DNA of 64,000 bases from an uncultured Planctomycetia bacterium (GCA_964635565.1 CAZWON010000003.1:5345-69344); one strand, 5' to 3'; shown: positions 3,234 through 33,716, counted from the stretch's first letter. Notes: a model not told the origin generated them from the sequence alone. Numbers and translations: made by a program.

Positions 3234-4116
3234 GAAGACGCAGTGCTTCTCGATATTTCTCCTCTGTTTTTGCTACTATCTCTGGGGGAAGAGGTGGGGC
3301 AGGAGGGCTTTTGTCCCAATTAATATTCTCCAAGTAATCACGGACAAACTGTTTGTCAAAACTAATCTGTGGTCCCCCTGGCTTATATTTTTTCTTGGAC
3401 CAAAAACGAGAGGAATCAGGTGTTAATACCTCATCAATAAGTGTAAGTTGGTTATTAATGAGCCCAAATTCAAACTTAGTATCTGCTATAACAATTCCTC
3501 TTATAAATGCATAAATCCTTGCTCCCTTATATAACTGAATACTTATCTCTCTCATCTTCTGAACCAGAGTATTTCCCAGAAGCTGTTGGGCATTCTGGAA
3601 ATTAATATTCTCATCATGGCCATGTTCTGCTTTGCGTGCAGGAGTAAAGATTGGCTCAGAGAGCTTATCTGCCTCTCTTAACCCTTCAGGAAGCTTAATC
3701 CCGCATATCTCCCCTCTTTCCTTATATTCCCGCCAGGCAGAACCTGCTAAATAACCACGCACCACACACTCTAAAGGTATGGGCCGTGCTTTTCTTACTA
3801 TCATAGAACGACCTTTTAGTATATCAGCATATTTGGATAATTGCGGATACTTAGAAATATCAGAAGTAACAAAGTGATTAGGAGTAATCACACGAGAAAA
3901 ATTAAACCACAAACAGGATAGTTGGGTTAATACCTTTCCTTTGTTAGGAATACCTGTGGGTAGAACAACATCGAAGCAGGAAATTCTATCTGTAGCAACA
4001 ATAAGAAAATGTTTATCGTCAAGTTCATATATATCACGTACTTTACCCCGTTTAAAAAGCTTTAAATCTTTAAAATCAGTTGTAGAAACAATTTTTTCTG
4101 CCATGCTAAAACCCAT
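3211..4116 (-). CDS. purC: phosphoribosylaminoimidazole-succinocarboxamide (SAICAR) synthase
   Basis: GKVRDIYELDDKHFLIVATDRISCFDVVL motif typical of long-form PurC; 301 aa. Confidence 0.88.
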   Translation of the reverse strand: MGFSMAEKIVSTTDFKDLKLFKRGKVRDIYELDDKHFLIVATDRISCFDVVLPTGIPNKGKVLTQLSCLWFNFSRVITPNHFVTSDISKYPQLSKYADILKGRSMIVRKARPIPLECVVRGYLAGSAWREYKERGEICGIKLPEGLREADKLSEPIFTPARKAEHGHDENINFQNAQQLLGNTLVQKMREISIQLYKGARIYAFIRGIVIADTKFEFGLINNQLTLIDEVLTPDSSRFWSKKKYKPGGPQISFDKQFVRDYLENINWDKSPPAPPLPPEIVAKTEEKYREALRLLAGKDIE

Positions 4117-4420
4117 CTTAAATCCTTTTCAAAAAATAAACCAATATATTCATCGTTTTCCTCTTAAGAAGAAAAAATTTTTTGTGCCTTATGCATATTA
4201 AGAAGTATTAAAATTATCTTATCTTTTTCTTTATATATTATATTTTAGCGAAATTTTTAAGATACGCAAGACAAAGTAACCGAAACAAAGAAAAGTAAAG
4301 ACACATGGTATACAGATAAAACCTTTTCTTTGATAAGGAGCTATTTAAAAGGTTAAAAAGGAGCGCACTAAAAATCAAAGTTACTTCTAAAAAGCCCAAA
4401 ACAAAGAATACTCCTTTTCC

Positions 4421-16808: not shown

Positions 16809-17213
16809 TTAAACCACCTCTCCTAAATCTGCTACTTCCTCTGGTTCACTGCCTAAATCTACCTCTTTTGTCTCTGCTTTTACTCCTTTCGGCATAAACT
16901 GCACACTGTTAGCTCTTACTTCAATAATGTTTCGAGATTTACCTTCGGAATTCTGCCAACTACGGGAAATAAGTCTTCCCTCAACAAATATACTTCTTCC
17001 CTTTTCTAAATACTGGTTACAAATCTCTGCTAATTGTCCCCAAGCTACAACATTTACGAAACACGTATCCTTTTTTGCCTCGCCATTCTTATCCTTAAAG
17101 GAAGTATTCACAGCAATTCTTAAAGTAGTAACTGCTGTTCCTTGGGAAGTATAGCGAAGTTCAGGATCTTTTGTAAGATTGCCTACCAAAAGTACTTTAT
17201 TTAAACTAACCAC
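16809..17213 (-). CDS. ssb: Single-stranded DNA-binding protein
   Basis: [25 protein letters not shown]...[10 protein letters not shown]-fold; acidic C-terminal tail. Confidence 0.9.
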
Positions 17214-19916: not shown

Positions 19917-21188
19917 CTATTTACTCTTTTTTCTTTTAAAAACCCTTGCGGGTACTCCTACAACAATAGTATTTGATTTAACTGGTTTAGTTACTACCGA
20001 GCCTGCTCCTGTCATAGCACCTTCACCTATATTAGCAGGAGCCACAATTACTGTTCCCGAACCAATAAAGGCTCTTTTTCCTATAGTAGTATTGTGTTTT
20101 CTTTTGCCATCGTAGTTAGCAATAACTGTCCCTGCTCCAATATTGACAGCTTCGCCTACAGTAGTATCTCCTATGTAGCTAAAATGTTTCATTCTTACGT
20201 TTTTCTTAAGGACACTCCGGTTTATCTCCGTGAAATTACCAACTTTACTATTATCCTCTATTTTACTATGAGCACGAATGTGAGCAAAAGGCCCAACTAC
20301 ACAGTTGTTGCCAATTATAACATTTTTCTCAATAAAGGTAAAGGGATACACTATAGAATTTATCCCTATCTTTGTATCAAAACTTACAAATGTAGTCTCA
20401 GGATCAACAATAGAAACCCCTCTGCTCATAAGTTTCTCCAGAAATCTCTGATTTATAATTTTACGCACCAAGGCGAAATTTTTTTGAGTATTAACCCCCA
20501 GAATCTCCTCTTCATCATCTACAATAAAACTTTCTATCTTAAACCCTTTGTTATAAAAAATATTTATAATATCAGTAAGAAAAAACTCTCTCTTTTTTTT
20601 ATTTAATTTAATTTTACTTAATTCCTTAAAAAGAAAATTTTTCTTAAAACAATAAATTCCACTATTTACCTCTTCGTTATCTCTGCTTTTAATGTTTGTC
20701 TTCTCTATGATGGCTTTTATTCTATTAGATGAATCACGAATAACCTTCCCTAAATCACTTTTCTCTTTAAACAAAGCGGTAATAATAGCACAATCCGCAT
20801 CTTTTTTAAAGAAAAAATTTATAAATTTCTTCAACGTATCTTTTCTAATAAGAGGGGTATCGCCACATATAACTAAAAGATTTCTCTTTTCCTTCAGAAA
20901 ATCCTTAGTAGCCTCTACTGCTTTTGCTGTGCCATTTTGTCTTGGTTGCACTACAAAACGAACATTTCTAAATTTTCTGTAAACCACTTGCTGTATTTTT
21001 TCTCTTTTATGTCCTACAACGAGAAAAATTTCATCGATCATTTTTATAGAAGATAAAGTCTCTAAGATATAAAAAATAAGAGGTTTACCTCCTAAGTCTA
21101 AAAGAACTTTAGGAACATTTGTTCTTGTTCTTTTACTTTTCCCTGCCCCTAATACTACTGCTGTTACTTTTTTTACCATTGTCTCCAT
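19917..21188 (-). CDS. glmU: Bifunctional UDP-GlcNAc pyrophosphorylase / GlcN-1-P N-acetyltransferase
   Basis: N-terminal AVVLGAGKSKRTRTNVPKVL nucleotidyltransferase motif plus C-terminal hexapeptide-repeat acetyltransferase; 423 aa. Confidence 0.85.
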   Translation of the reverse strand: METMVKKVTAVVLGAGKSKRTRTNVPKVLLDLGGKPLIFYILETLSSIKMIDEIFLVVGHKREKIQQVVYRKFRNVRFVVQPRQNGTAKAVEATKDFLKEKRNLLVICGDTPLIRKDTLKKFINFFFKKDADCAIITALFKEKSDLGKVIRDSSNRIKAIIEKTNIKSRDNEEVNSGIYCFKKNFLFKELSKIKLNKKKREFFLTDIINIFYNKGFKIESFIVDDEEEILGVNTQKNFALVRKIINQRFLEKLMSRGVSIVDPETTFVSFDTKIGINSIVYPFTFIEKNVIIGNNCVVGPFAHIRAHSKIEDNSKVGNFTEINRSVLKKNVRMKHFSYIGDTTVGEAVNIGAGTVIANYDGKRKHNTTIGKRAFIGSGTVIVAPANIGEGAMTGAGSVVTKPVKSNTIVVGVPARVFKRKKSK

Positions 21189-26555: not shown

Positions 26556-26749
26556 AGTATTAACCTCAAAGCGAATTAAAATTATACAATTTTAAATATA
26601 ATTTGTAAAGTAAAGTTTTTATAACAACCAAAAAGCACCTTTCCCTAACCAGCCACTTACAACTTTTATAATCACCTTCTTTTAGAACTAATTCTTTACG
26701 GACTGATTTTGGTGATGGAATCAGATAATGTATAAAATAGAAAACTTCT

Positions 26750-27832
26750 TTATTTCTCTTTATCTCTACTCAATATTTGTTTTACAGCATCGAATACTTC
26801 CTTTACTCTGATATCACGCAAACATTTCTTATCATACAAACATCCTCTAAATTTAAACATTTTATAACAAGGCCTACAGGGAATGTCTTTCTTAATTACT
26901 ATCCCTAAAGTCTCATTAGGATATAACCCATATACATTTTCATCTACAGGTCCAAATAATACTACAACTTTTTTCCCCAGAGCCTGAGCAATATGTAAAG
27001 GCCCTCCATCATTAGTAACTACAAGGTCGCAAAAAGAAAGGACACTGCAAAATTCTTTAAGTGTTAACTTGCCCGCCAAATTCACTGGCTTAAAGTTAGA
27101 AAGATTATATACTTTATCAACAACAGAAATCTCCTTAGAAGAACCAAAAAGAACTACTTTTGCTTCCAATTCTTTGATAAGTAAATTCACAAGATAAGCA
27201 AAATATTGCTCTGGCCATCTCTTATAATAAGCTCTCTCATTCCAGCTGTCACCTGAACCAGGGACTAAACCAATGAGCAAATCATCTCTTTTTATATTGT
27301 ACTTCTCTAAGAATACCTCTGCTTTCTCCCAATCTTCTTTCTTAAAAAAAATGTCAAACTTATAGTCCCTCGTCGGTATATTAAGAAACTTGGCTAATTC
27401 TAAATAGTAATGTGCCACGTGTTTATCTTTATAATATAAGATATTAATCTTGTGAGTTAAAAAATGTCTTCTGTTCTTAAAGCTGAAACCTATTCGTTTT
27501 TTTATATAGAGAGTTTTTAAAAAAAGTCTATAATAAGGGTTCAAAGATAAATCAAAAACAACATCATATTTTTCCTTTTTAATATTTCTCCAGAATGAAA
27601 CGGCTCTTTTTAAAAAAGATACTTTTGACCTTCTTAAATCTTTCCTCCACTCGTCTTTTTCAAAAATAAAAACTTTATCTAAGAAAATATTATCTTCAAG
27701 TAAAGGAAATGTTCGGCGATTAGAAATATAACCAATATAGCTGGAAGGTAAATGCTCTTTTATGTTTCTTATAAGAGGAGTAGTAAAAAGTACATCTCCT
27801 ATGCCAAAAGGATTAAAAATAAGTATTTTCAT
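26750..27832 (-). CDS. Glycosyltransferase family 9 (LPS heptosyltransferase-like)
   Basis: MKILIFNPFGIGDVLFTTPLIRNIK N-terminus typical of RfaC/RfaF/WaaQ heptosyltransferases. Confidence 0.8.
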   Translation of the reverse strand: MKILIFNPFGIGDVLFTTPLIRNIKEHLPSSYIGYISNRRTFPLLEDNIFLDKVFIFEKDEWRKDLRRSKVSFLKRAVSFWRNIKKEKYDVVFDLSLNPYYRLFLKTLYIKKRIGFSFKNRRHFLTHKINILYYKDKHVAHYYLELAKFLNIPTRDYKFDIFFKKEDWEKAEVFLEKYNIKRDDLLIGLVPGSGDSWNERAYYKRWPEQYFAYLVNLLIKELEAKVVLFGSSKEISVVDKVYNLSNFKPVNLAGKLTLKEFCSVLSFCDLVVTNDGGPLHIAQALGKKVVVLFGPVDENVYGLYPNETLGIVIKKDIPCRPCYKMFKFRGCLYDKKCLRDIRVKEVFDAVKQILSRDKEK

Positions 27833-27837
27833 AGAAA

Positions 27838-29214
27838 CTAATAAGTATCGAACCTCTTTATATCATCTTCACCGAGGTAACTGCCAATTTGCACCTCAAT
27901 AACAATCGTCATCTTAGAGGTAGGGTTATAAACTTTATGCCTTATTCCTTTGGGAACATAAATACTTTCATTTTTCTTAATCAGGAATTTCTTCTCCCCT
28001 AGGGTAACTTCTGCTTTCCCTTCTACAATATTCCAATGTTCACTCCGATACCTATGCCGTTGTAAAGAGATAAACTTTTTAGGGTATATTCCTATCTCCT
28101 TTACCTTATAATTATTTCTTTCTATAAGAATAGTATAGTAACCCCACGGTCTATATACCGTGGCACTCTCTTTAACATGGGGAATCTTTTTCTTTCTTAA
28201 ATAAACTGTGAAATCCTTCACTCTATCTGATTCACCTCTTTTCATTATAAGGATGGAATCAGAACTCTCTATAAGAAGTATATCTCTAACTCCCAGCATA
28301 CCAACGAACTTTTCTGGAGAAAAGGAAAAGCATCTTTCACTATCAAAGAACTCCGCATTTCCAATACTGATGTTGTTTTCTCCCGAAGAGAAATAATCCC
28401 ATACACTTTCCCAACTCCCCATATCAGACCATTTAGCTTTAAGTTCTAATAACACAGCTCGTTGGGTTTTCTGCATAATGGCATAGTCTATAGAACGAGA
28501 AGGGCATTTAATAAAATTAGAAAATACATCATGGTAACTTCCAAGCGTATACTTAAAAATATCAGGGGCATATTGCTTCAACTCATCAAAAAATACTTCT
28601 CCCTTAAAAACAAAAACTCCTGCATTCCAATAAGCATTTTTTTTCAGCAACCATTTTATTTTATACTTTGAGGGTTTTTCTACAAACTCAAAAACTTTAT
28701 ATCCCCATAAGATTTTCTTCCCCTTTAGAATATACCCATAGCCGGGATTAGCAGAATAAGGCCTTATTCCAAAAACTACCACATAACCATTATCCGCTAA
28801 TACCTGCGCTTTCTTCAATGTTTCAATAAACTTACTGACAGGCTTAATAATGTGGTCTGAAGGAAAAACAAAGAAAATCTCTTCCCTGAACTTTTTCTGT
28901 GACTTCATTGCTAAAACAACAGCAGGGGCTGTACTTTTAGGATAAGGTTCTAAGATAATATTCTTTTTAAGATGTGCTTTTGTTTTCCTATTAATATTTA
29001 AAAGATTGTCAATCTGATTAATAATGTGGAACTTATAACTTAAAGAAGTAACAACAATGATATCTTTTGCTTCAAAATACTTAAGAAGCCTCTTTACTGT
29101 AAGCTGGAACAGAGATTCTTTCTTTATAAATTCCACAAACTGTTTGGGATAATTCTCCCTTGATAATGGCCACAGTCTTGTCCCTTTCCCTCCTCCTAAA
29201 ACTATTGCTTTCAT
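27838..29214 (-). CDS. manC: Mannose-1-phosphate guanylyltransferase / mannose-6-phosphate isomerase (type II PMI, cupin C-terminus)
   Basis: MKAIVLGGGKGTRLWPLSRENYPKQF nucleotidyltransferase N-terminus; C-terminal cupin motif HRYRSEHWNIVEGKAEVTLG; 458 aa. Confidence 0.8.
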   Translation of the reverse strand: MKAIVLGGGKGTRLWPLSRENYPKQFVEFIKKESLFQLTVKRLLKYFEAKDIIVVTSLSYKFHIINQIDNLLNINRKTKAHLKKNIILEPYPKSTAPAVVLAMKSQKKFREEIFFVFPSDHIIKPVSKFIETLKKAQVLADNGYVVVFGIRPYSANPGYGYILKGKKILWGYKVFEFVEKPSKYKIKWLLKKNAYWNAGVFVFKGEVFFDELKQYAPDIFKYTLGSYHDVFSNFIKCPSRSIDYAIMQKTQRAVLLELKAKWSDMGSWESVWDYFSSGENNISIGNAEFFDSERCFSFSPEKFVGMLGVRDILLIESSDSILIMKRGESDRVKDFTVYLRKKKIPHVKESATVYRPWGYYTILIERNNYKVKEIGIYPKKFISLQRHRYRSEHWNIVEGKAEVTLGEKKFLIKKNESIYVPKGIRHKVYNPTSKMTIVIEVQIGSYLGEDDIKRFDTY

Positions 29215-29358: not shown

Positions 29359-30870
29359 CTATTCGCTATTTTCTTTCTTTTGAATCTCCCTCACTTTCTT
29401 TGAGAAATAACCTCCTGTATAAGCATCTAAAGACGCAGTTAGTTCTCTTAACCTGATTTCATCTTTAAATCTCTCACTTCTATCTTTGTACTCTTTACTT
29501 CTTAATCTCTGTTTAACCTTAAGACGTTCAAAATAGGTTGTATTTATATCATCAAGGATGCTTATACGAAGTTGAGTTACCAGACGACTACGTGTATCAA
29601 CCTCATCCTCATAAGAATTCCATATCAAGTTGGCAATATCCCAGGAAAAGCTTACTCCCCAGTCTTTTGGTCCTATAGCAAAATTCCCACTGGAGCTTCC
29701 ATAAACTGTCTTATCGTAATCTAGGCTTATACTGGGGAAAAAAGCACGGTATTTCAATGCCCTGCGCCACTTTCTAATCTTAGAAGGGTCTACCTCATTA
29801 TAGATAAGAGCTGCTTCCTGTACTTCTCTAATGGAAGGTTCATTTTTGCAAAGTTCATCAAATTCTCTCCATGACGTTGCTTTTGTAAACCTATCCTGAT
29901 AAAATAAACCTTTTGAAGTAGCTACAAAAAGAACACCTTTACGGTTAAAATCAACACTGAAAATATTTCTTGTTGGTAAACCTTCAAATAGAGGAAGTGA
30001 ATCATTTGAAGTAATGTCTGCTAAATATATTCCTCTATCAGTAGCTAAATAAATCTTGTTCTTCTCAAGATGACTTTGAGCGATATCTTTAATGTTAAGT
30101 TTATCTATACCTGATAAGGATATTTTCACCCAGCTTCTCCCTCTATCATAAGAAACAAAAAGACCCCGTTGTGTACCTGCATATATACGTCCGGGATAAA
30201 AAATATCATGAATGATTATACCATTACTAACATCTCCCTCATTACTCTCCTCTTCAATTTCTTCTTCATTAATTGCAGTATGTTTAAACACAAGACTTCT
30301 TTTAAACCCTTCTCTGTTGTGTGCTACATAAATACCATCTTCTGTGGCTATAAATATCTCATTTCCTGAACAATCAATAGAATATACTGAACGGTGAGGT
30401 AACCCTTTAAGGACTTTCCACTTCCATATATTTTCTTCTGCATAATACACACCTTCTGTAGTACCTAAATAGAATATTTTTCCGCACTTCTTAATACAAC
30501 TTCCTTTTACTTCAGGGGGAAAATTGAAAATCTTCTTCTTTGTATTACTACTGAACCAATAGAGAGCATAATCCGTAACCAGATAGAAGACATCATAAAC
30601 ATATTTATCGGCATATATATCCTGTATCTGGCCACTTTCTGAGACAAAAATTTTTTTCCACTGTCTCCCTCCATTAGTACTCTTAAAAAGAGAATTTAAA
30701 CCTCTCACATAAATAATATTGTCGTCCAGTGGATTAACACAGACTTTCCTAATCAATGTTTCTTCTATCCCTCTAACCTTTATAAATAAAGGATGTGCTT
30801 CTCCCAGCAAAGAAAAACATAAAATAATCCCTCCCATTAACTTCACTTTTCTTCTTGCATTCTTACCCAT
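29359..30870 (-). CDS. Secreted BNR/Asp-box (Ycf48-like) repeat protein with a C-terminal helical/charged domain
   Basis: Signal peptide; BNR-like motifs STNGGRQWKKI and SYDRGRSWVKI; propeller-like repeats (GIYVA, GIYLA, GLFYQD); 503 aa. No specific family recognised. Confidence 0.5.
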   Translation of the reverse strand: MGKNARRKVKLMGGIILCFSLLGEAHPLFIKVRGIEETLIRKVCVNPLDDNIIYVRGLNSLFKSTNGGRQWKKIFVSESGQIQDIYADKYVYDVFYLVTDYALYWFSSNTKKKIFNFPPEVKGSCIKKCGKIFYLGTTEGVYYAEENIWKWKVLKGLPHRSVYSIDCSGNEIFIATEDGIYVAHNREGFKRSLVFKHTAINEEEIEEESNEGDVSNGIIIHDIFYPGRIYAGTQRGLFVSYDRGRSWVKISLSGIDKLNIKDIAQSHLEKNKIYLATDRGIYLADITSNDSLPLFEGLPTRNIFSVDFNRKGVLFVATSKGLFYQDRFTKATSWREFDELCKNEPSIREVQEAALIYNEVDPSKIRKWRRALKYRAFFPSISLDYDKTVYGSSSGNFAIGPKDWGVSFSWDIANLIWNSYEDEVDTRSRLVTQLRISILDDINTTYFERLKVKQRLRSKEYKDRSERFKDEIRLRELTASLDAYTGGYFSKKVREIQKKENSE

Positions 30871-30877
30871 ACTTTAC

Positions 30878-31930
30878 CCCCTAACTTTACACATACCTTT
30901 CAAAAGTATATGTCAAGTTAACCCTCTAACTTTACATTTAACGTTCAAAAGGTTTTGTAAGGTTTTGTAAAATTAGTGTTTAAAGTGTTATAAATGCTTT
31001 GCCTTGACACATTAAGAATACAAGCGATATCTTTTATACTATATCCCCTTGATTTTAACTGTTCGATTAAATATCTTCGGGCTTGGAATTCATGTGGATG
31101 CTTGAGACGTTTTTTACTCATTACCCTCTCAATATCTACTGCTATATCATTCAAACTGTCTTTTTTTACTTTAAGAAAATTTCTTATTTTCCCAAAAAGC
31201 ATAAGAGAAAATTTCTCGGTAGCCCGATTATCCTCAATAACACTATTGATATTTAGTTTGTATGCTTTATCCATAATCTCCTCGTACATTAGAGAGGCTT
31301 TCCTAAGATCGCAACTTAGTAGCCCCAACACATATTCATAATTTATAAAAGTATTTTTAGGAAGTTTAGAATACGCAGATAAAGATGACCATCTATAATC
31401 TACAAGGGGATTTACTAATCTAGCTTTGTAGGGATTAAGATGAATATACACTGAAACAGTAATAAGATAATTATCATCCAAACATAAAAAGGCTTTATAA
31501 TTACTATAAAAAACATGCCCTTTTCTTTTATATTTGGAGTTAAAATAAAGAGCGTATTTTGTAAAAAGCGACTTCATACCTTCAGAAAGATTAGCACTGT
31601 TAATTTTAACCAGTAAATGAAGATGATTAGGCATAAGACAGAAACAATAAATATCAAAAGAAAACCTCAATTTAGTTTCTTTTAAAATATGAAGAAAGTA
31701 GAGATAGTCTCTATTTTCTAAGAAAAGGATGTCTTTACCTGTAGCTCGCTGAACTATATGATATACATAACCTGCGCAAATAATTTTTTGGTAAGGATTA
31801 GATACGTGCGCAGAGTTTTTTTCTTGTGGGTCCATAAAATATTAAAGGATTATCTCATCTCTTTATACAAAAATCAAGCCAAAATTTCCTAACTTGACAA
31901 AATCTTTTGAACGTTATGTGTCAAGTTAAA
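30878..31930 (-). mobile_element. REP-RAYT-REP-like unit: Y1 transposase gene bracketed by inverted imperfect palindromes
   Basis: Left flank hairpin tgtcaagtt-N8-aactttaca (30911-30936) followed by aacgttcaaaaggttttgt. Right flank hairpin aacttgaca-N19-tgtcaagtt (31892-31928) with cttttgaacgtt in its loop. The left block and the reverse complement of the right block match at about 26 of 30 nt. An extra ctaactttaca copy lies at 30881. Confidence 0.5.
30945..31835 (-). CDS. IS200-like Y1 tyrosine transposase (RAYT/COG1943-like) with a C-terminal DnaA-domain-IV-like HTH
   Basis: YHIVQRATGKDILF start, HxH motif MPNHLHLL, catalytic-Tyr region YIHLNPYKARLV plus YRWSS. C-terminal ~100 aa contain the HTH SIKDIACILNVSRQSIYNTL. 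Confidence 0.75.
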   Translation of the reverse strand: MDPQEKNSAHVSNPYQKIICAGYVYHIVQRATGKDILFLENRDYLYFLHILKETKLRFSFDIYCFCLMPNHLHLLVKINSANLSEGMKSLFTKYALYFNSKYKRKGHVFYSNYKAFLCLDDNYLITVSVYIHLNPYKARLVNPLVDYRWSSLSAYSKLPKNTFINYEYVLGLLSCDLRKASLMYEEIMDKAYKLNINSVIEDNRATEKFSLMLFGKIRNFLKVKKDSLNDIAVDIERVMSKKRLKHPHEFQARRYLIEQLKSRGYSIKDIACILNVSRQSIYNTLNTNFTKPYKTF

Positions 31931-32717
31931 AAGAAGGAGGGTAGTTTTGGAAGTGGCGATATTTAGCGTAACTTACTATCTGATACAGGGAAGAAAAGTA
32001 AGCTACCATAAAACCTACAAACCCATCGCGATATCCTTTCTTCACAAAAAAAGTGCGTACAAATCTATCTATTGTCCGCCATAAAGCATGAATTAAATTC
32101 ATCTTATACTGGGCTTTTTTAAAATCCTCTAAAGATAATTTATACCATTTAAGTGCTTCTAAGGTAGTTTGATTATTAAGTTTCCTCAAATAATCTTCCC
32201 AATTCCGGTAAGTATAGTGAACGATATCACTTTTAAGCCTTCCACAAGCTCCCTTTAGGAATGCCCGTGGATGAACTTCTACTTCTTCCCATCTAAACTT
32301 ATCTTTTCTAAATAGTTTTATCTGAGGGGCAGGATATAACCCTCCCCAGCGTATCCAATAATTTCCTATATAATTTCGACGGGGAACAGTAAAACCACAG
32401 AATTGCGTGTTACTTCTTAAAATATTCCTAATCTCATCTCTCAATCCTTCGGTTACCCTCTCGTCAGCATCTAAACTCAATACCCAATCATTCCTCACTT
32501 TGCTATACGCCCAATTGCGATGTCTGCCTTCTATATCCATCTTTTTTACAAAAACTTTTGCCCCTAAACTTTCCGCAATTTCTTTTGTCCTATCACACGA
32601 CTCATCATCAATAACGACTATCTCATCTACCCACTCAACAACAGATTTTATACAATCAGGAATTCTTTTCTCTTCATTCTTTGTTAAAATAACTACAGAT
32701 ATACGCTCTTTTTCCAT
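31926..32717 (-). CDS. Glycosyltransferase family 2 (LPS-core WaaE/KdtX-like)
   Basis: ISVVILTKNEEKRI...VIDDESCDRT...LDADE GT-A fold motifs (DxD); 263 aa. Confidence 0.78.
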   Translation of the reverse strand: MEKERISVVILTKNEEKRIPDCIKSVVEWVDEIVVIDDESCDRTKEIAESLGAKVFVKKMDIEGRHRNWAYSKVRNDWVLSLDADERVTEGLRDEIRNILRSNTQFCGFTVPRRNYIGNYWIRWGGLYPAPQIKLFRKDKFRWEEVEVHPRAFLKGACGRLKSDIVHYTYRNWEDYLRKLNNQTTLEALKWYKLSLEDFKKAQYKMNLIHALWRTIDRFVRTFFVKKGYRDGFVGFMVAYFSSLYQIVSYAKYRHFQNYPPSF

Positions 32718-32744: not shown

Positions 32745-33716
32745 CTATATTATACAATCTTTCTGAGAAGAAATAAAACTCAAAATATCTTCTATTTTAT
32801 CTAAGAAGTCTTTAACTTTTTCCCCTTCTATCACTAAAGAAATTGTCTTATAAGGACCCCAACGATAAGGTGATGTCACCTTAAATAAACCTACAACTGG
32901 CCTTTTAAATATACTGGCAAGGTGCATTGGCCCCGAATCTAAACCAATAAATACTCCGCAATAATATTTAAAAAATACGGCTAAATTTCTCAAAGTAAGC
33001 CTCCCCACAAGATTTATTACTTTAAGGCCTCCTATAAAATCCACACTTTCTTCTTTATCCTCTTCTGTCCCTATAATAACTATTTTATTTTTAATTTTTT
33101 CATTAATCTTCTCTATTAATTTATGCCAAAATTCTTTTTCTATTCTCTTAGCTTGGTGAGAAGAAAAAGGGTGAATAACTACATATTTCTCTCTAAAAAA
33201 TAATTTATTATCTAAAAAATGCAAAGATTCTCTTTTATCAAAAGGAAATTCTAATGAAGGGGCTTTCGTATCTTTACATATCAAACGTACCAAATCTATA
33301 TTATATTCTGCTTCGTGTTTCTTGGATAAATGTTTTCTATCGGTTATTTTTTTGTTCAAACAGAATCCCCATTTTCTATCATAACCCACCCTTAAAGACG
33401 CTCTGCCTAAAAAGGAAGCTAAATGAAACTCTCTTTGGGGATTAAAAACAACCACAGTATCAATACTATATTCCTTAATTATTCCCGCCAACTTAAAAGC
33501 CCCCCTAAGACCTCTAAATTCTTCTTTTTGATAAAAGAGAAATTCGTCTATAAACTCCGTCCCCTTAATAAGCTCAATATTCTCCTCTTTAGCCAATAAA
33601 TATAATTTACTTTCTGGATAGTTAATCTTGATAATCTTTATGGCATAAAGAGTCAACAGAAATTCTCCTAATCTATCTGAGCGAATACACAAAATTCTCC
33701 TTTGCATATTAGACAC
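32745..33716 (-). CDS. Glycosyltransferase family 9 (heptosyltransferase-like)
   Basis: ILCIRSDRLGEFLLTLYAIKII N-terminus and C-terminal GxDSGPMHLA motif (GLDSGPMHLA). Confidence 0.8.
   Translation of the reverse strand: MSNMQRRILCIRSDRLGEFLLTLYAIKIIKINYPESKLYLLAKEENIELIKGTEFIDEFLFYQKEEFRGLRGAFKLAGIIKEYSIDTVVVFNPQREFHLASFLGRASLRVGYDRKWGFCLNKKITDRKHLSKKHEAEYNIDLVRLICKDTKAPSLEFPFDKRESLHFLDNKLFFREKYVVIHPFSSHQAKRIEKEFWHKLIEKINEKIKNKIVIIGTEEDKEESVDFIGGLKVINLVGRLTLRNLAVFFKYYCGVFIGLDSGPMHLASIFKRPVVGLFKVTSPYRWGPYKTISLVIEGEKVKDFLDKIEDILSFISSQKDCII

Follow-up and report, generated by a model that had tools for sequence, protein, structure and literature searches.

Our results suggest that the gene at 30945..31835, on the minus strand of a 64,000-nucleotide stretch of DNA attributed to an uncultured Planctomycetia bacterium (GCA_964635565.1, CAZWON010000003.1:5345-69344; hereafter the window), belongs to a domesticated transposase system. 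The gene encodes a tyrosine nuclease of the Y1/HUH type with a C-terminal helix-turn-helix (HTH), and around it lie three copies of a 39-nt hairpin unit, TAACTT(G/T)ACA-N19-TGT(C/A)AAGTTA. We consider it probable that this Y1-HTH protein is a domesticated nuclease, that the hairpins are its cognates and that they can be processed on single-stranded DNA. The case is built on the family and fold of the protein, the conservation of its catalytic residues, the existence of a hairpin family whose paired positions covary, the placement of its copies, the synteny of the locus and the recurrent association of gene and hairpins, all of which were established directly. Repetitive extragenic palindromic (REP) sequences and the REP-associated tyrosine transposases (RAYTs) are the textbook example of transposase domestication in bacteria, and our reading would extend this known type of system to a new phylum, Omnitrophota.

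The protein was identified from its open reading frame (ORF) of 296 amino acids (aa), from Pfam, from its homologs and by Foldseek comparison of an AlphaFold (AF2) model. Pfam PF01797 (Y1_Tnp) matches residues 24-132 (E 2.8e-12; 47.3 bits against a cutoff of 23), and HTH_38, HTH_7, HTH_28 and HTH_23 match residues ~253-287 (HTH_28 E 6.4e-4; HTH_23 E 2.6e-3; HTH_7 at its cutoff). The sole NCBIfam hit, NF047646 (REP_Tyr_transpos), is covered over its whole model by residues 15-150. A preliminary description of the window had called the product RAYT-like on the strength of three motifs, HLHLL, YIHLNP and YRWSS; these are indeed present in the ORF, at residues 71-75, 130-135 and 147-151, and vary little or not at all among 49 homologs of 38-62% identity. 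H71 and H73 form the HUH motif, Y130 is the catalytic-type tyrosine and residues 149-151 are the WSS motif. Across the homologs N70, H71, H73, the run Y130-I-H-L-N-P135 and W149 are invariant, and S150 and S151 are kept in at least 90%. The HTH, which spans residues ~253-287, contains the invariant Q259, and at least 90% of the homologs keep its L260, G264, I270 and R278. In the AF2 model (pLDDT 85.6) a helical linker joins the Y1 core to a C-terminal module of three helices (247-286). Its top Foldseek match in the PDB is 4ER8, the E. coli TnpAREP protein bound to a REP hairpin (E 1.8e-6, target TM 0.75), and the transposases of IS200, IS608 and ISDra2 come next (fold matches to 2VJV and 2XMA). 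The RAYT-like assignment is therefore upheld by the Pfam family, by the best NCBIfam match, which lies below its cutoff, and by the best structural match.

The three palindromes, none of which is assigned to a strand, lie at 31890..31928, 30882..30920 and 30927..30965, and shuffles of the window give an expectation of 0.00 for the exact pattern. The upstream copy (31890..31928), TAACTTGACA-N19-TGTCAAGTTA, pairs perfectly over the 10 bp of its outer stem and folds as DNA to -6.4 kcal/mol (z -2.9). Its last 3 nt, 31926-31928, are the TAA stop codon of a GT2 glycosyltransferase gene on the minus strand, an overlap that had been pointed out before. The two downstream copies form a tandem with a 45-nt period. 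The one nearer to the following gene, which encodes a BNR/sortilin-like protein, lies at 30882..30920; a single T.C/G.A mismatch interrupts its outer stem, and the inner stem is paired on the gene strand, which folds to -7.1 kcal/mol (z -4.2). On the minus strand this copy is followed by GGGGG (30877-30881) and then by the ATG of the BNR-like gene (30870), which is 11 nt past the hairpin and not 8 nt as first given. The copy at 30927..30965 is degenerate: it folds no better than shuffles (z -0.57), its gene-proximal arm has AAACCTTACA in place of TAACTTGACA, and within it a 10-nt tandem duplication places AAGGTTTTGT twice at 30949-30968. In relatives the stop codon of the Y1 gene is the TAA of this gene-proximal downstream arm; the window has AAA, and the ORF is consequently six codons longer and ends at a TGA in the hairpin interior. 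Left arms compared with right arms are complementary at 85% of 39 nt and 84% of 38 nt, so that the earlier estimate of about 26 matches in 30 was a fair one. The right copy carries its interior in the opposite orientation to that of the left copies (16 of 19 positions against the 30927 copy). The extended inner stem still folds in only one of the three. Elsewhere in the 64 kb we found no further copy, and with up to four mismatches allowed the matches were at chance level. Rfam holds no family for the hairpins of the window or of four other loci. The system in the window genome looks quiescent or low-copy, with two of the three visible copies decaying.

Similar hairpins are numerous in other genomes. 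A scan of one genome per GTDB species with the exact pattern TAACTTKACA-N19-TGTMAAGTTA, for which all copy counts are lower bounds, gave at least 136 hairpins on at least 119 stretches from ~34 assemblies among the matches listed. Nearly all hosts among these matches are metagenome-assembled genomes (MAGs) or single-amplified genomes (SAGs) of Omnitrophota, and some are labelled Planctomycetia or Elusimicrobia. The highest counts are at least 41 in CAZWYD, at least 18 in AUK132 (JAGGWS), at least 12 in the SAG AM-311-J02 (JBHPFI) and at least 8 in B32_G15 (QNCG), and tandem arrays occur in L101 (three copies), L103 and L040. The 39-mer is laid out as a near-perfect palindrome, with a 10-bp foot, a short A/T-rich zone, an inner stem of 5-6 bp and a 3-nt tip; the most stable folds, -12 to -15 kcal/mol, are found in high-copy genomes. 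Among 94 distinct hairpin sequences, the paired share of cells is 88.7%, compared with 76.8% after shuffling, and the covariation score is 0.323 against 0.125 in shuffles (0 of 500 as high), falling to ~0.06-0.09 when the partners are slid. In these sequences the pair 7/33 is T-A 45 times and G-C 41 times, with 8 mismatches. The outer stem is common to many genomes and the G/T state of the foot is nearly always specific to a genome; the inner stem is genome-specific and covaries. Identity over the 19-nt interior is 0.93 within genomes and 0.43 between them, a pattern that we read as homogenisation within genomes, i.e., recent amplification or conversion. No conserved head was found outside the 39-mer, and there is no complementarity among the flanks of the hairpins. 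Literature searches for the hairpin decamers and, in full text, for RAYTs in Omnitrophota returned no paper on this element.

Two sets of look-alikes should be kept apart from this family. A scan of metagenomes with the interior pattern of the window type was set aside: it returned 21 stretches, most of which carry an unrelated TTGACA-N19-TGTCAA motif. This motif, ACTCTTGACATCATTCGTTCAAAAGYTATTGTCAATTTG, lies directly before the Shine-Dalgarno sequence and ATG in L128-L147, from organisms of 38-47% GC; it shares its geometry with the Omnitrophota hairpin, yet seems unrelated to it. A scan of viral contigs for the hairpin yielded only an array of the decamer in an unrelated phage. In this array (L155 10100-10480, also L156 and L157; IMG/VR, 54% GC), ~300 bp of non-coding DNA upstream of terminase genes is full of TAACTT(G/T)ACA in both orientations; it resembles an iterated protein-binding array and has no Y1 gene.

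The hairpins recur beside the genes for Y1-HTH proteins. Such genes have flanking hairpins in 10 of 11 other homologous loci, and in L002-L008, L036, L066, L093, L138/139 and L152 it is the variant of the genome itself that flanks the Y1 gene. Six relatives at ~60% identity have one hairpin upstream of the Y1 start and a tandem pair that runs from the TAA stop of the Y1 gene up to the Shine-Dalgarno sequence preceding the BNR-like gene. Among the others, the hairpins of CAZWYD (L036) are in inverted orientation, 18 nt ahead of the start and on the stop codon; an Omnitrophica MAG (PCWA, L066) has its own variant in direct orientation; an Omnitrophota MAG (DAOVNW, L093), in which the 3' end of the gene is off the contig, has a single hairpin, 9 nt ahead of the start; and an Elusimicrobia-labelled locus (L152) has 46-nt arms that are 96% complementary. 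REPs are usually specific to a species or genus, whereas the foot described here is common to genomes whose Y1-HTH proteins are only ~40% identical to that of the window. Other feet do occur. A WOR-3 MAG (L153 9870-9965 and 10870-10908) has units of the same 10+19+10 layout with the foot AAAYTACACA/TGTGTAATTT (foot variant AAATTACACA), two copies upstream and one downstream, and an Omnitrophota MAG (L106 ~150-330 and 1190-1300) has a longer, different foot, TAACGCAATACGCAACA. The different feet of L106 and L153 suggest that protein and foot have co-evolved. The preliminary description had stressed that the palindromes are inverted relative to each other; this is true of the window and of L036, L106 and L152, but the flanks are in direct orientation in L002, L004, L007 and L066, and inversion is hence not a trait of the family. 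As a separate observation, CAZWYD has a second, short Y1 gene (~158 aa; L057 ~3830-4310) with the motifs HNHVH, YIEHNP and YTWSS; its flanks are ~36-nt terminal inverted repeats (TIRs) of its own, GGGACGGTTCTyAGCCCAATCCCAGACCTGTC, and it is a different, TIRtron-like unit.

Placement of the hairpins on genes is distinctive. Of the 136 listed, 126 are intergenic, and where both flanking genes are in view (98 of the copies listed) the genes are co-directional in 82 cases, convergent in 10 and divergent in 6. The terminal TAA is the in-frame stop codon of an ORF of at least 80 codons in 40 of the 136 copies listed (29%), compared with 2.2% for the TAA triplets of these loci overall, and the start codon of the following gene usually lies 3-25 nt past the hairpin. 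One junction can be compared in a filled and an empty state. In CAZWYD (L120) a leuA-like gene ends in ...TMHP-TAA, the TAA being the first triplet of the hairpin, and is followed by GGAAGGAG and the start of purA; in the window the orthologous gene ends in ...TMQP-TAG, purA starts 12 nt on and there is no hairpin. Donation of a stop codon by a repeat terminus has a precedent, as passages of PMC3733652 report that GTAG REPs often supply TAG.

The locus itself argues for long residence. On the minus strand, the Y1 gene lies between the GT2 gene (31926..32717) and the gene for the BNR/sortilin-like protein (503 aa; 29359..30870); beyond these are a GT9 heptosyltransferase-like gene on one side (32745..33716) and ManC (27838..29214) and a second GT9 heptosyltransferase-like gene (26750..27832) on the other. 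The nearest homologs of the Y1-HTH protein have ~60% identity and 284-289 aa, and are encoded on other Omnitrophota metagenome contigs. In three lineages (P0002, P0007 and P0015) the order Y1 gene, BNR-like, ManC, GT9 is kept at ~60% protein identity, and the upstream neighbours differ. A gene that holds its position and gene order at this divergence is an old resident and not a fresh insertion. The description of the gene as inserted into a lipopolysaccharide island does not survive this comparison, and the GT2/BNR-like junction, compared in relatives as had been proposed there, showed no empty site among those examined. The Y1 gene is present in one copy in the window, and the clusters of Y1-HTH proteins that were looked up have 1 member each, on 1-3 contigs; the gene is probably single-copy and vertically inherited. 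Such a housekeeping-like pattern has been described for RAYTs (PMC5581495). Distant homologs (40-46% identity) are found in unrelated gene contexts. Two features of the neighbourhood are recorded for their own sake. All 58 ORFs of at least 100 aa in the window (58/58) are on the minus strand and the GC skew, taken in 2-kb bins, is negative throughout, an unusually long and uninterrupted block of one-strand coding. In one of the 60% relatives (L007 4583-7507), the BNR/sortilin-like gene beside Y1 is apparently split by a DDE_Tnp_1 transposase gene (431 aa) on the opposite strand.

How might such a system work? We infer catalysis on the hairpin, the mode of recognition and mobility from analogy with E. 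coli TnpAREP and with TnpA of IS200/IS605. The enzyme would bind the folded hairpin on single-stranded DNA and would recognise the conserved 10-bp foot, TAACTT(G/T)ACA / TGT(C/A)AAGTTA; cutting and rejoining beside the foot would then copy or move the hairpin. Surviving copies would be confined to stop-codon-proximal gaps of operons in compact genomes coded on one strand. In several related Omnitrophota genomes the hairpin has multiplied to dozens, with the copies homogenised within each genome. Several results, however, weigh against this reading. No dispersed hairpin is present in ~78 kb of the source contig (the window and ~14 kb beyond its edges). The score for REP_Tyr_transpos is 60.2 bits against a curated equivalog cutoff of 80, so that the classification of the protein by profile holds for Y1_Tnp and falls short for the RAYT model. 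Sequence-only searches of the PDB, with a single sequence or a profile, were insignificant, and the link to TnpAREP comes from fold comparison only. Pairing and covariation are read from a family in which nine of the ten outer-stem pairs are invariant by the search pattern, leaving only the pair 7/33 and the interior free to vary. A GTAG-type (or CGTC) head is absent: the unit starts with TAAC, and the flank profile shows a weak preference for C at -2/-3. One homolog (L154, host not established) has no flanking hairpin. Finally, the orientation of the hairpin relative to gene direction has no significant bias (44 versus 31, p 0.17), where a strictly strand-specific mechanism on single-stranded DNA might predict a bias.

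The same observations may be explained in other ways. The conservation of the HTH, including the invariant Q259, the fixed half-site sequence and 19-nt spacing and the position of hairpins directly before the Y1 and BNR-like starts in 6 of 6 close relatives, abutting the Shine-Dalgarno sequence, would all fit a protein that acts chiefly as a transcription factor. In this case the HTH would bind the two 10-bp half-sites as double-stranded DNA and regulate its own gene and the BNR-like/ManC/GT9 operon, and the dispersed copies would be its regulon; the iterated site of the same decamer in an unrelated phage also speaks for such binding. However, the invariant HUH and Tyr motifs would be superfluous for a pure repressor, the compensatory changes of the interior keep pairing and not sequence, unrelated genes are separated by copies that sit on stop codons, other copies lie in gaps between convergent genes, and homogenisation within genomes is what is seen for repeats. 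We regard this explanation as very unlikely. Another proposal is a role in RNA: the hairpins would work chiefly at the mRNA level, where they would act as intercistronic stabilisers, serve as processing sites or modulate translational coupling, and would persist on this account, and the Y1 gene would do no more than seed them. This agrees with the co-directional setting of 82 of the 98 classifiable copies listed, which usually extend from a stop codon to a point 3-25 nt ahead of the following start, with a palindrome that gives the same hairpin in either orientation and with the folding energies of the high-copy genomes. Passages of PMC3479197 and PMC3733652 that report effects of REPs on mRNA turnover count in its favor. 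Yet the better-folding strand is not significantly preferred as the sense strand, Rfam contains no matching family, and the tight association with the Y1 gene and the homogenisation within genomes are left unexplained. As the main explanation a function in RNA seems to us quite unlikely, though it is compatible with a hairpin-processing nuclease and does not exclude one.

It could also be proposed that gene and end hairpins move together as an autonomous insertion sequence (IS) of the IS200 type that was inserted between GT2 and the BNR-like gene. The Y1 transposase fold, the hairpins at both ends and the unrelated contexts of the distant homologs (40-46%) are what such an element would show. 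Against it stand the position and downstream order kept in three lineages at ~60% identity, the clusters of a single member on 1-3 contigs, the lack of a second gene copy in the window, the fact that most hairpins have no gene nearby and, in CAZWYD, at least 41 hairpins against only one Y1-HTH gene over 215 kb of sampled sequence; we consider a mobile unit of this kind highly improbable. The preliminary description had favored a REPtron over an IS. Its preference is justified insofar as hairpins are dispersed in related genomes and the gene-hairpin unit recurs; the element lacks the GTAG head and is not a canonical REP. A bolder version of the domesticated nuclease would make the Y1-HTH enzyme a stop-codon-targeting transposase of single-stranded DNA, with TAA as its target, as TTAC is for IS608, and a 36-39-nt hairpin set exactly at the ends of operon genes. 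The HTH would read the foot, which would have stayed near-unchanged across Omnitrophota and neighbouring candidate phyla while the interior was re-homogenised in each genome, an ancient partnership of replicator and host in a RAYT class reported to be without REPs. We offer this version as a tentative and on balance unlikely one.

Our preferred reading of a domesticated nuclease with cognate hairpins can be set against known systems. The criteria of Quentin et al. (PMC6006769) for TnpA-Y1 subclass 2.1 are a C-terminal HTH (Bac_DnaA_C, HTH_23 or HTH_28), Y[IV]HLNP or YIELNP, SS and the absence of REP-like sequences near the gene, with NHVH/NH[YF]H and W[EQ]/FQ given as the HUH and W motifs in their Table 1. 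In passages of that 2018 paper subclass 2.1 is equated with Group 1 of Bertels et al. (PMC5581495) and with the TIRYT group of Di Nocera et al. 2013 (PMC3733652). The window protein shares with this class its length (296 aa) and C-terminal HTH, with matches to HTH_23 and HTH_28, the Y[IV]HLNP motif, the SS motif after the Tyr helix and a low gene copy number. Like the TIRYT genes, whose flanking repeats are described in part of PMC3733652 as sometimes self-complementary, clustered and moderately abundant, it is flanked by repeats of this kind. It differs in that its HUH motif is NHLH, that F-[C/S/Y] stands where W[EQ]/FQ is listed and that its flanks are 39-nt TAACTTKACA hairpins and not TIRs with GGGGWSAS. 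Moreover, Quentin et al. saw no REPs beside the genes of subclass 2.1, and for the flanking 16-mers of Group 1 only ~12 occurrences were counted (Bertels et al. 2017, PMC5581495), whereas relatives of the window carry up to at least 41 hairpins, and the hosts are Omnitrophota, Elusimicrobia-labelled MAGs and WOR-3 instead of Proteobacteria. Because architecture, YIHLNP and SS are shared and the HUH and W/F motifs and the GGGGWSAS TIR are not, we file the protein as closest to subclass 2.1/Group 1/TIRYT by motifs and domain architecture, with membership unproven.

The E. coli REPtron (PDB 4ER8) is the best structural match, and the parts of PMC3479197 and PMC8266576 that deal with it portray, as we do here, a domesticated, single-copy and vertically inherited gene with cognate hairpins. 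These hairpins, too, are dispersed extragenically, singly and in tandem clusters, and passages of PMC3733652 indicate that their termini can give a stop codon. In contrast, the hairpin of the window has neither the GTAG/CGTC head nor a bulged imperfect palindrome, its copy number is low to moderate (3 copies seen in the window genome), and the protein is ~130 aa longer, has an HTH and is under the NCBIfam RAYT cutoff. With TnpA of IS200/IS605 (IS608, ISDra2) the protein has in common the HUH/Y1 fold and the presence of subterminal hairpins, which those enzymes recognise on single-stranded DNA; their insertion beside a short specific target is a possible analogy to the TAA placement. Unlike these elements, the unit has no tnpB and is not multi-copy, its Tyr motif is the RAYT-type YIHLNP instead of Y---Q, the protein is extended by WSS and HTH parts and the hairpins spread without the gene. 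The behaviour is therefore REPtron/TIRtron-like, yet the definition of a GTAG REP does not apply.

The largest class of RAYTs, the HTH-bearing one (subclass 2.1, Group 1, TIRYT), has so far been without a clear substrate, and the hairpin family would give this architecture an easily recognised cognate. The natural variation of foot and interior and the precise placement on TAA make the rules of recognition and the choice of target accessible to tests with oligonucleotides and recombinant protein. For annotators of Omnitrophota MAGs the hairpins are a repeat family to mask or track, and for the window the practical message is that the Y1 gene is an old resident of a glycosyltransferase cluster.

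Some minor observations concern possible promoters and the surroundings of the window. A promoter-like site on the minus strand, TTGATT-17-GATAAT with an upstream TG (31849..31877), lies between the upstream hairpin and the Y1 start; it is a consensus match only, the regional count of such sites is at chance level, and a similar sequence is found at the same place in L002/L003. The stem sequences TTGACA/TTTACA of the hairpins were considered as sigma-70 promoters and this was rejected as their main function: by eye there is no acceptable -10 at 16-18 nt (a TAAAGT is 21 nt away), and a regional promoter scan was at chance. At ~26560-26620 of the window and ~2000-2040 of L119 (MAG AUK132), orthologous genes with different upstream neighbours are preceded by a conserved promoter-like sequence, TTTACAA...TTTAAAATTGTATAAT. 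Just beyond the left end of the window, the same contig carries an rRNA operon and three tRNAs (L149 15849-21374), with a group I intron within the 16S gene (16938-17192; Rfam RF00028, 57.6 bits) and the start of a LAGLIDADG ORF at 21015, directly after the 23S match.

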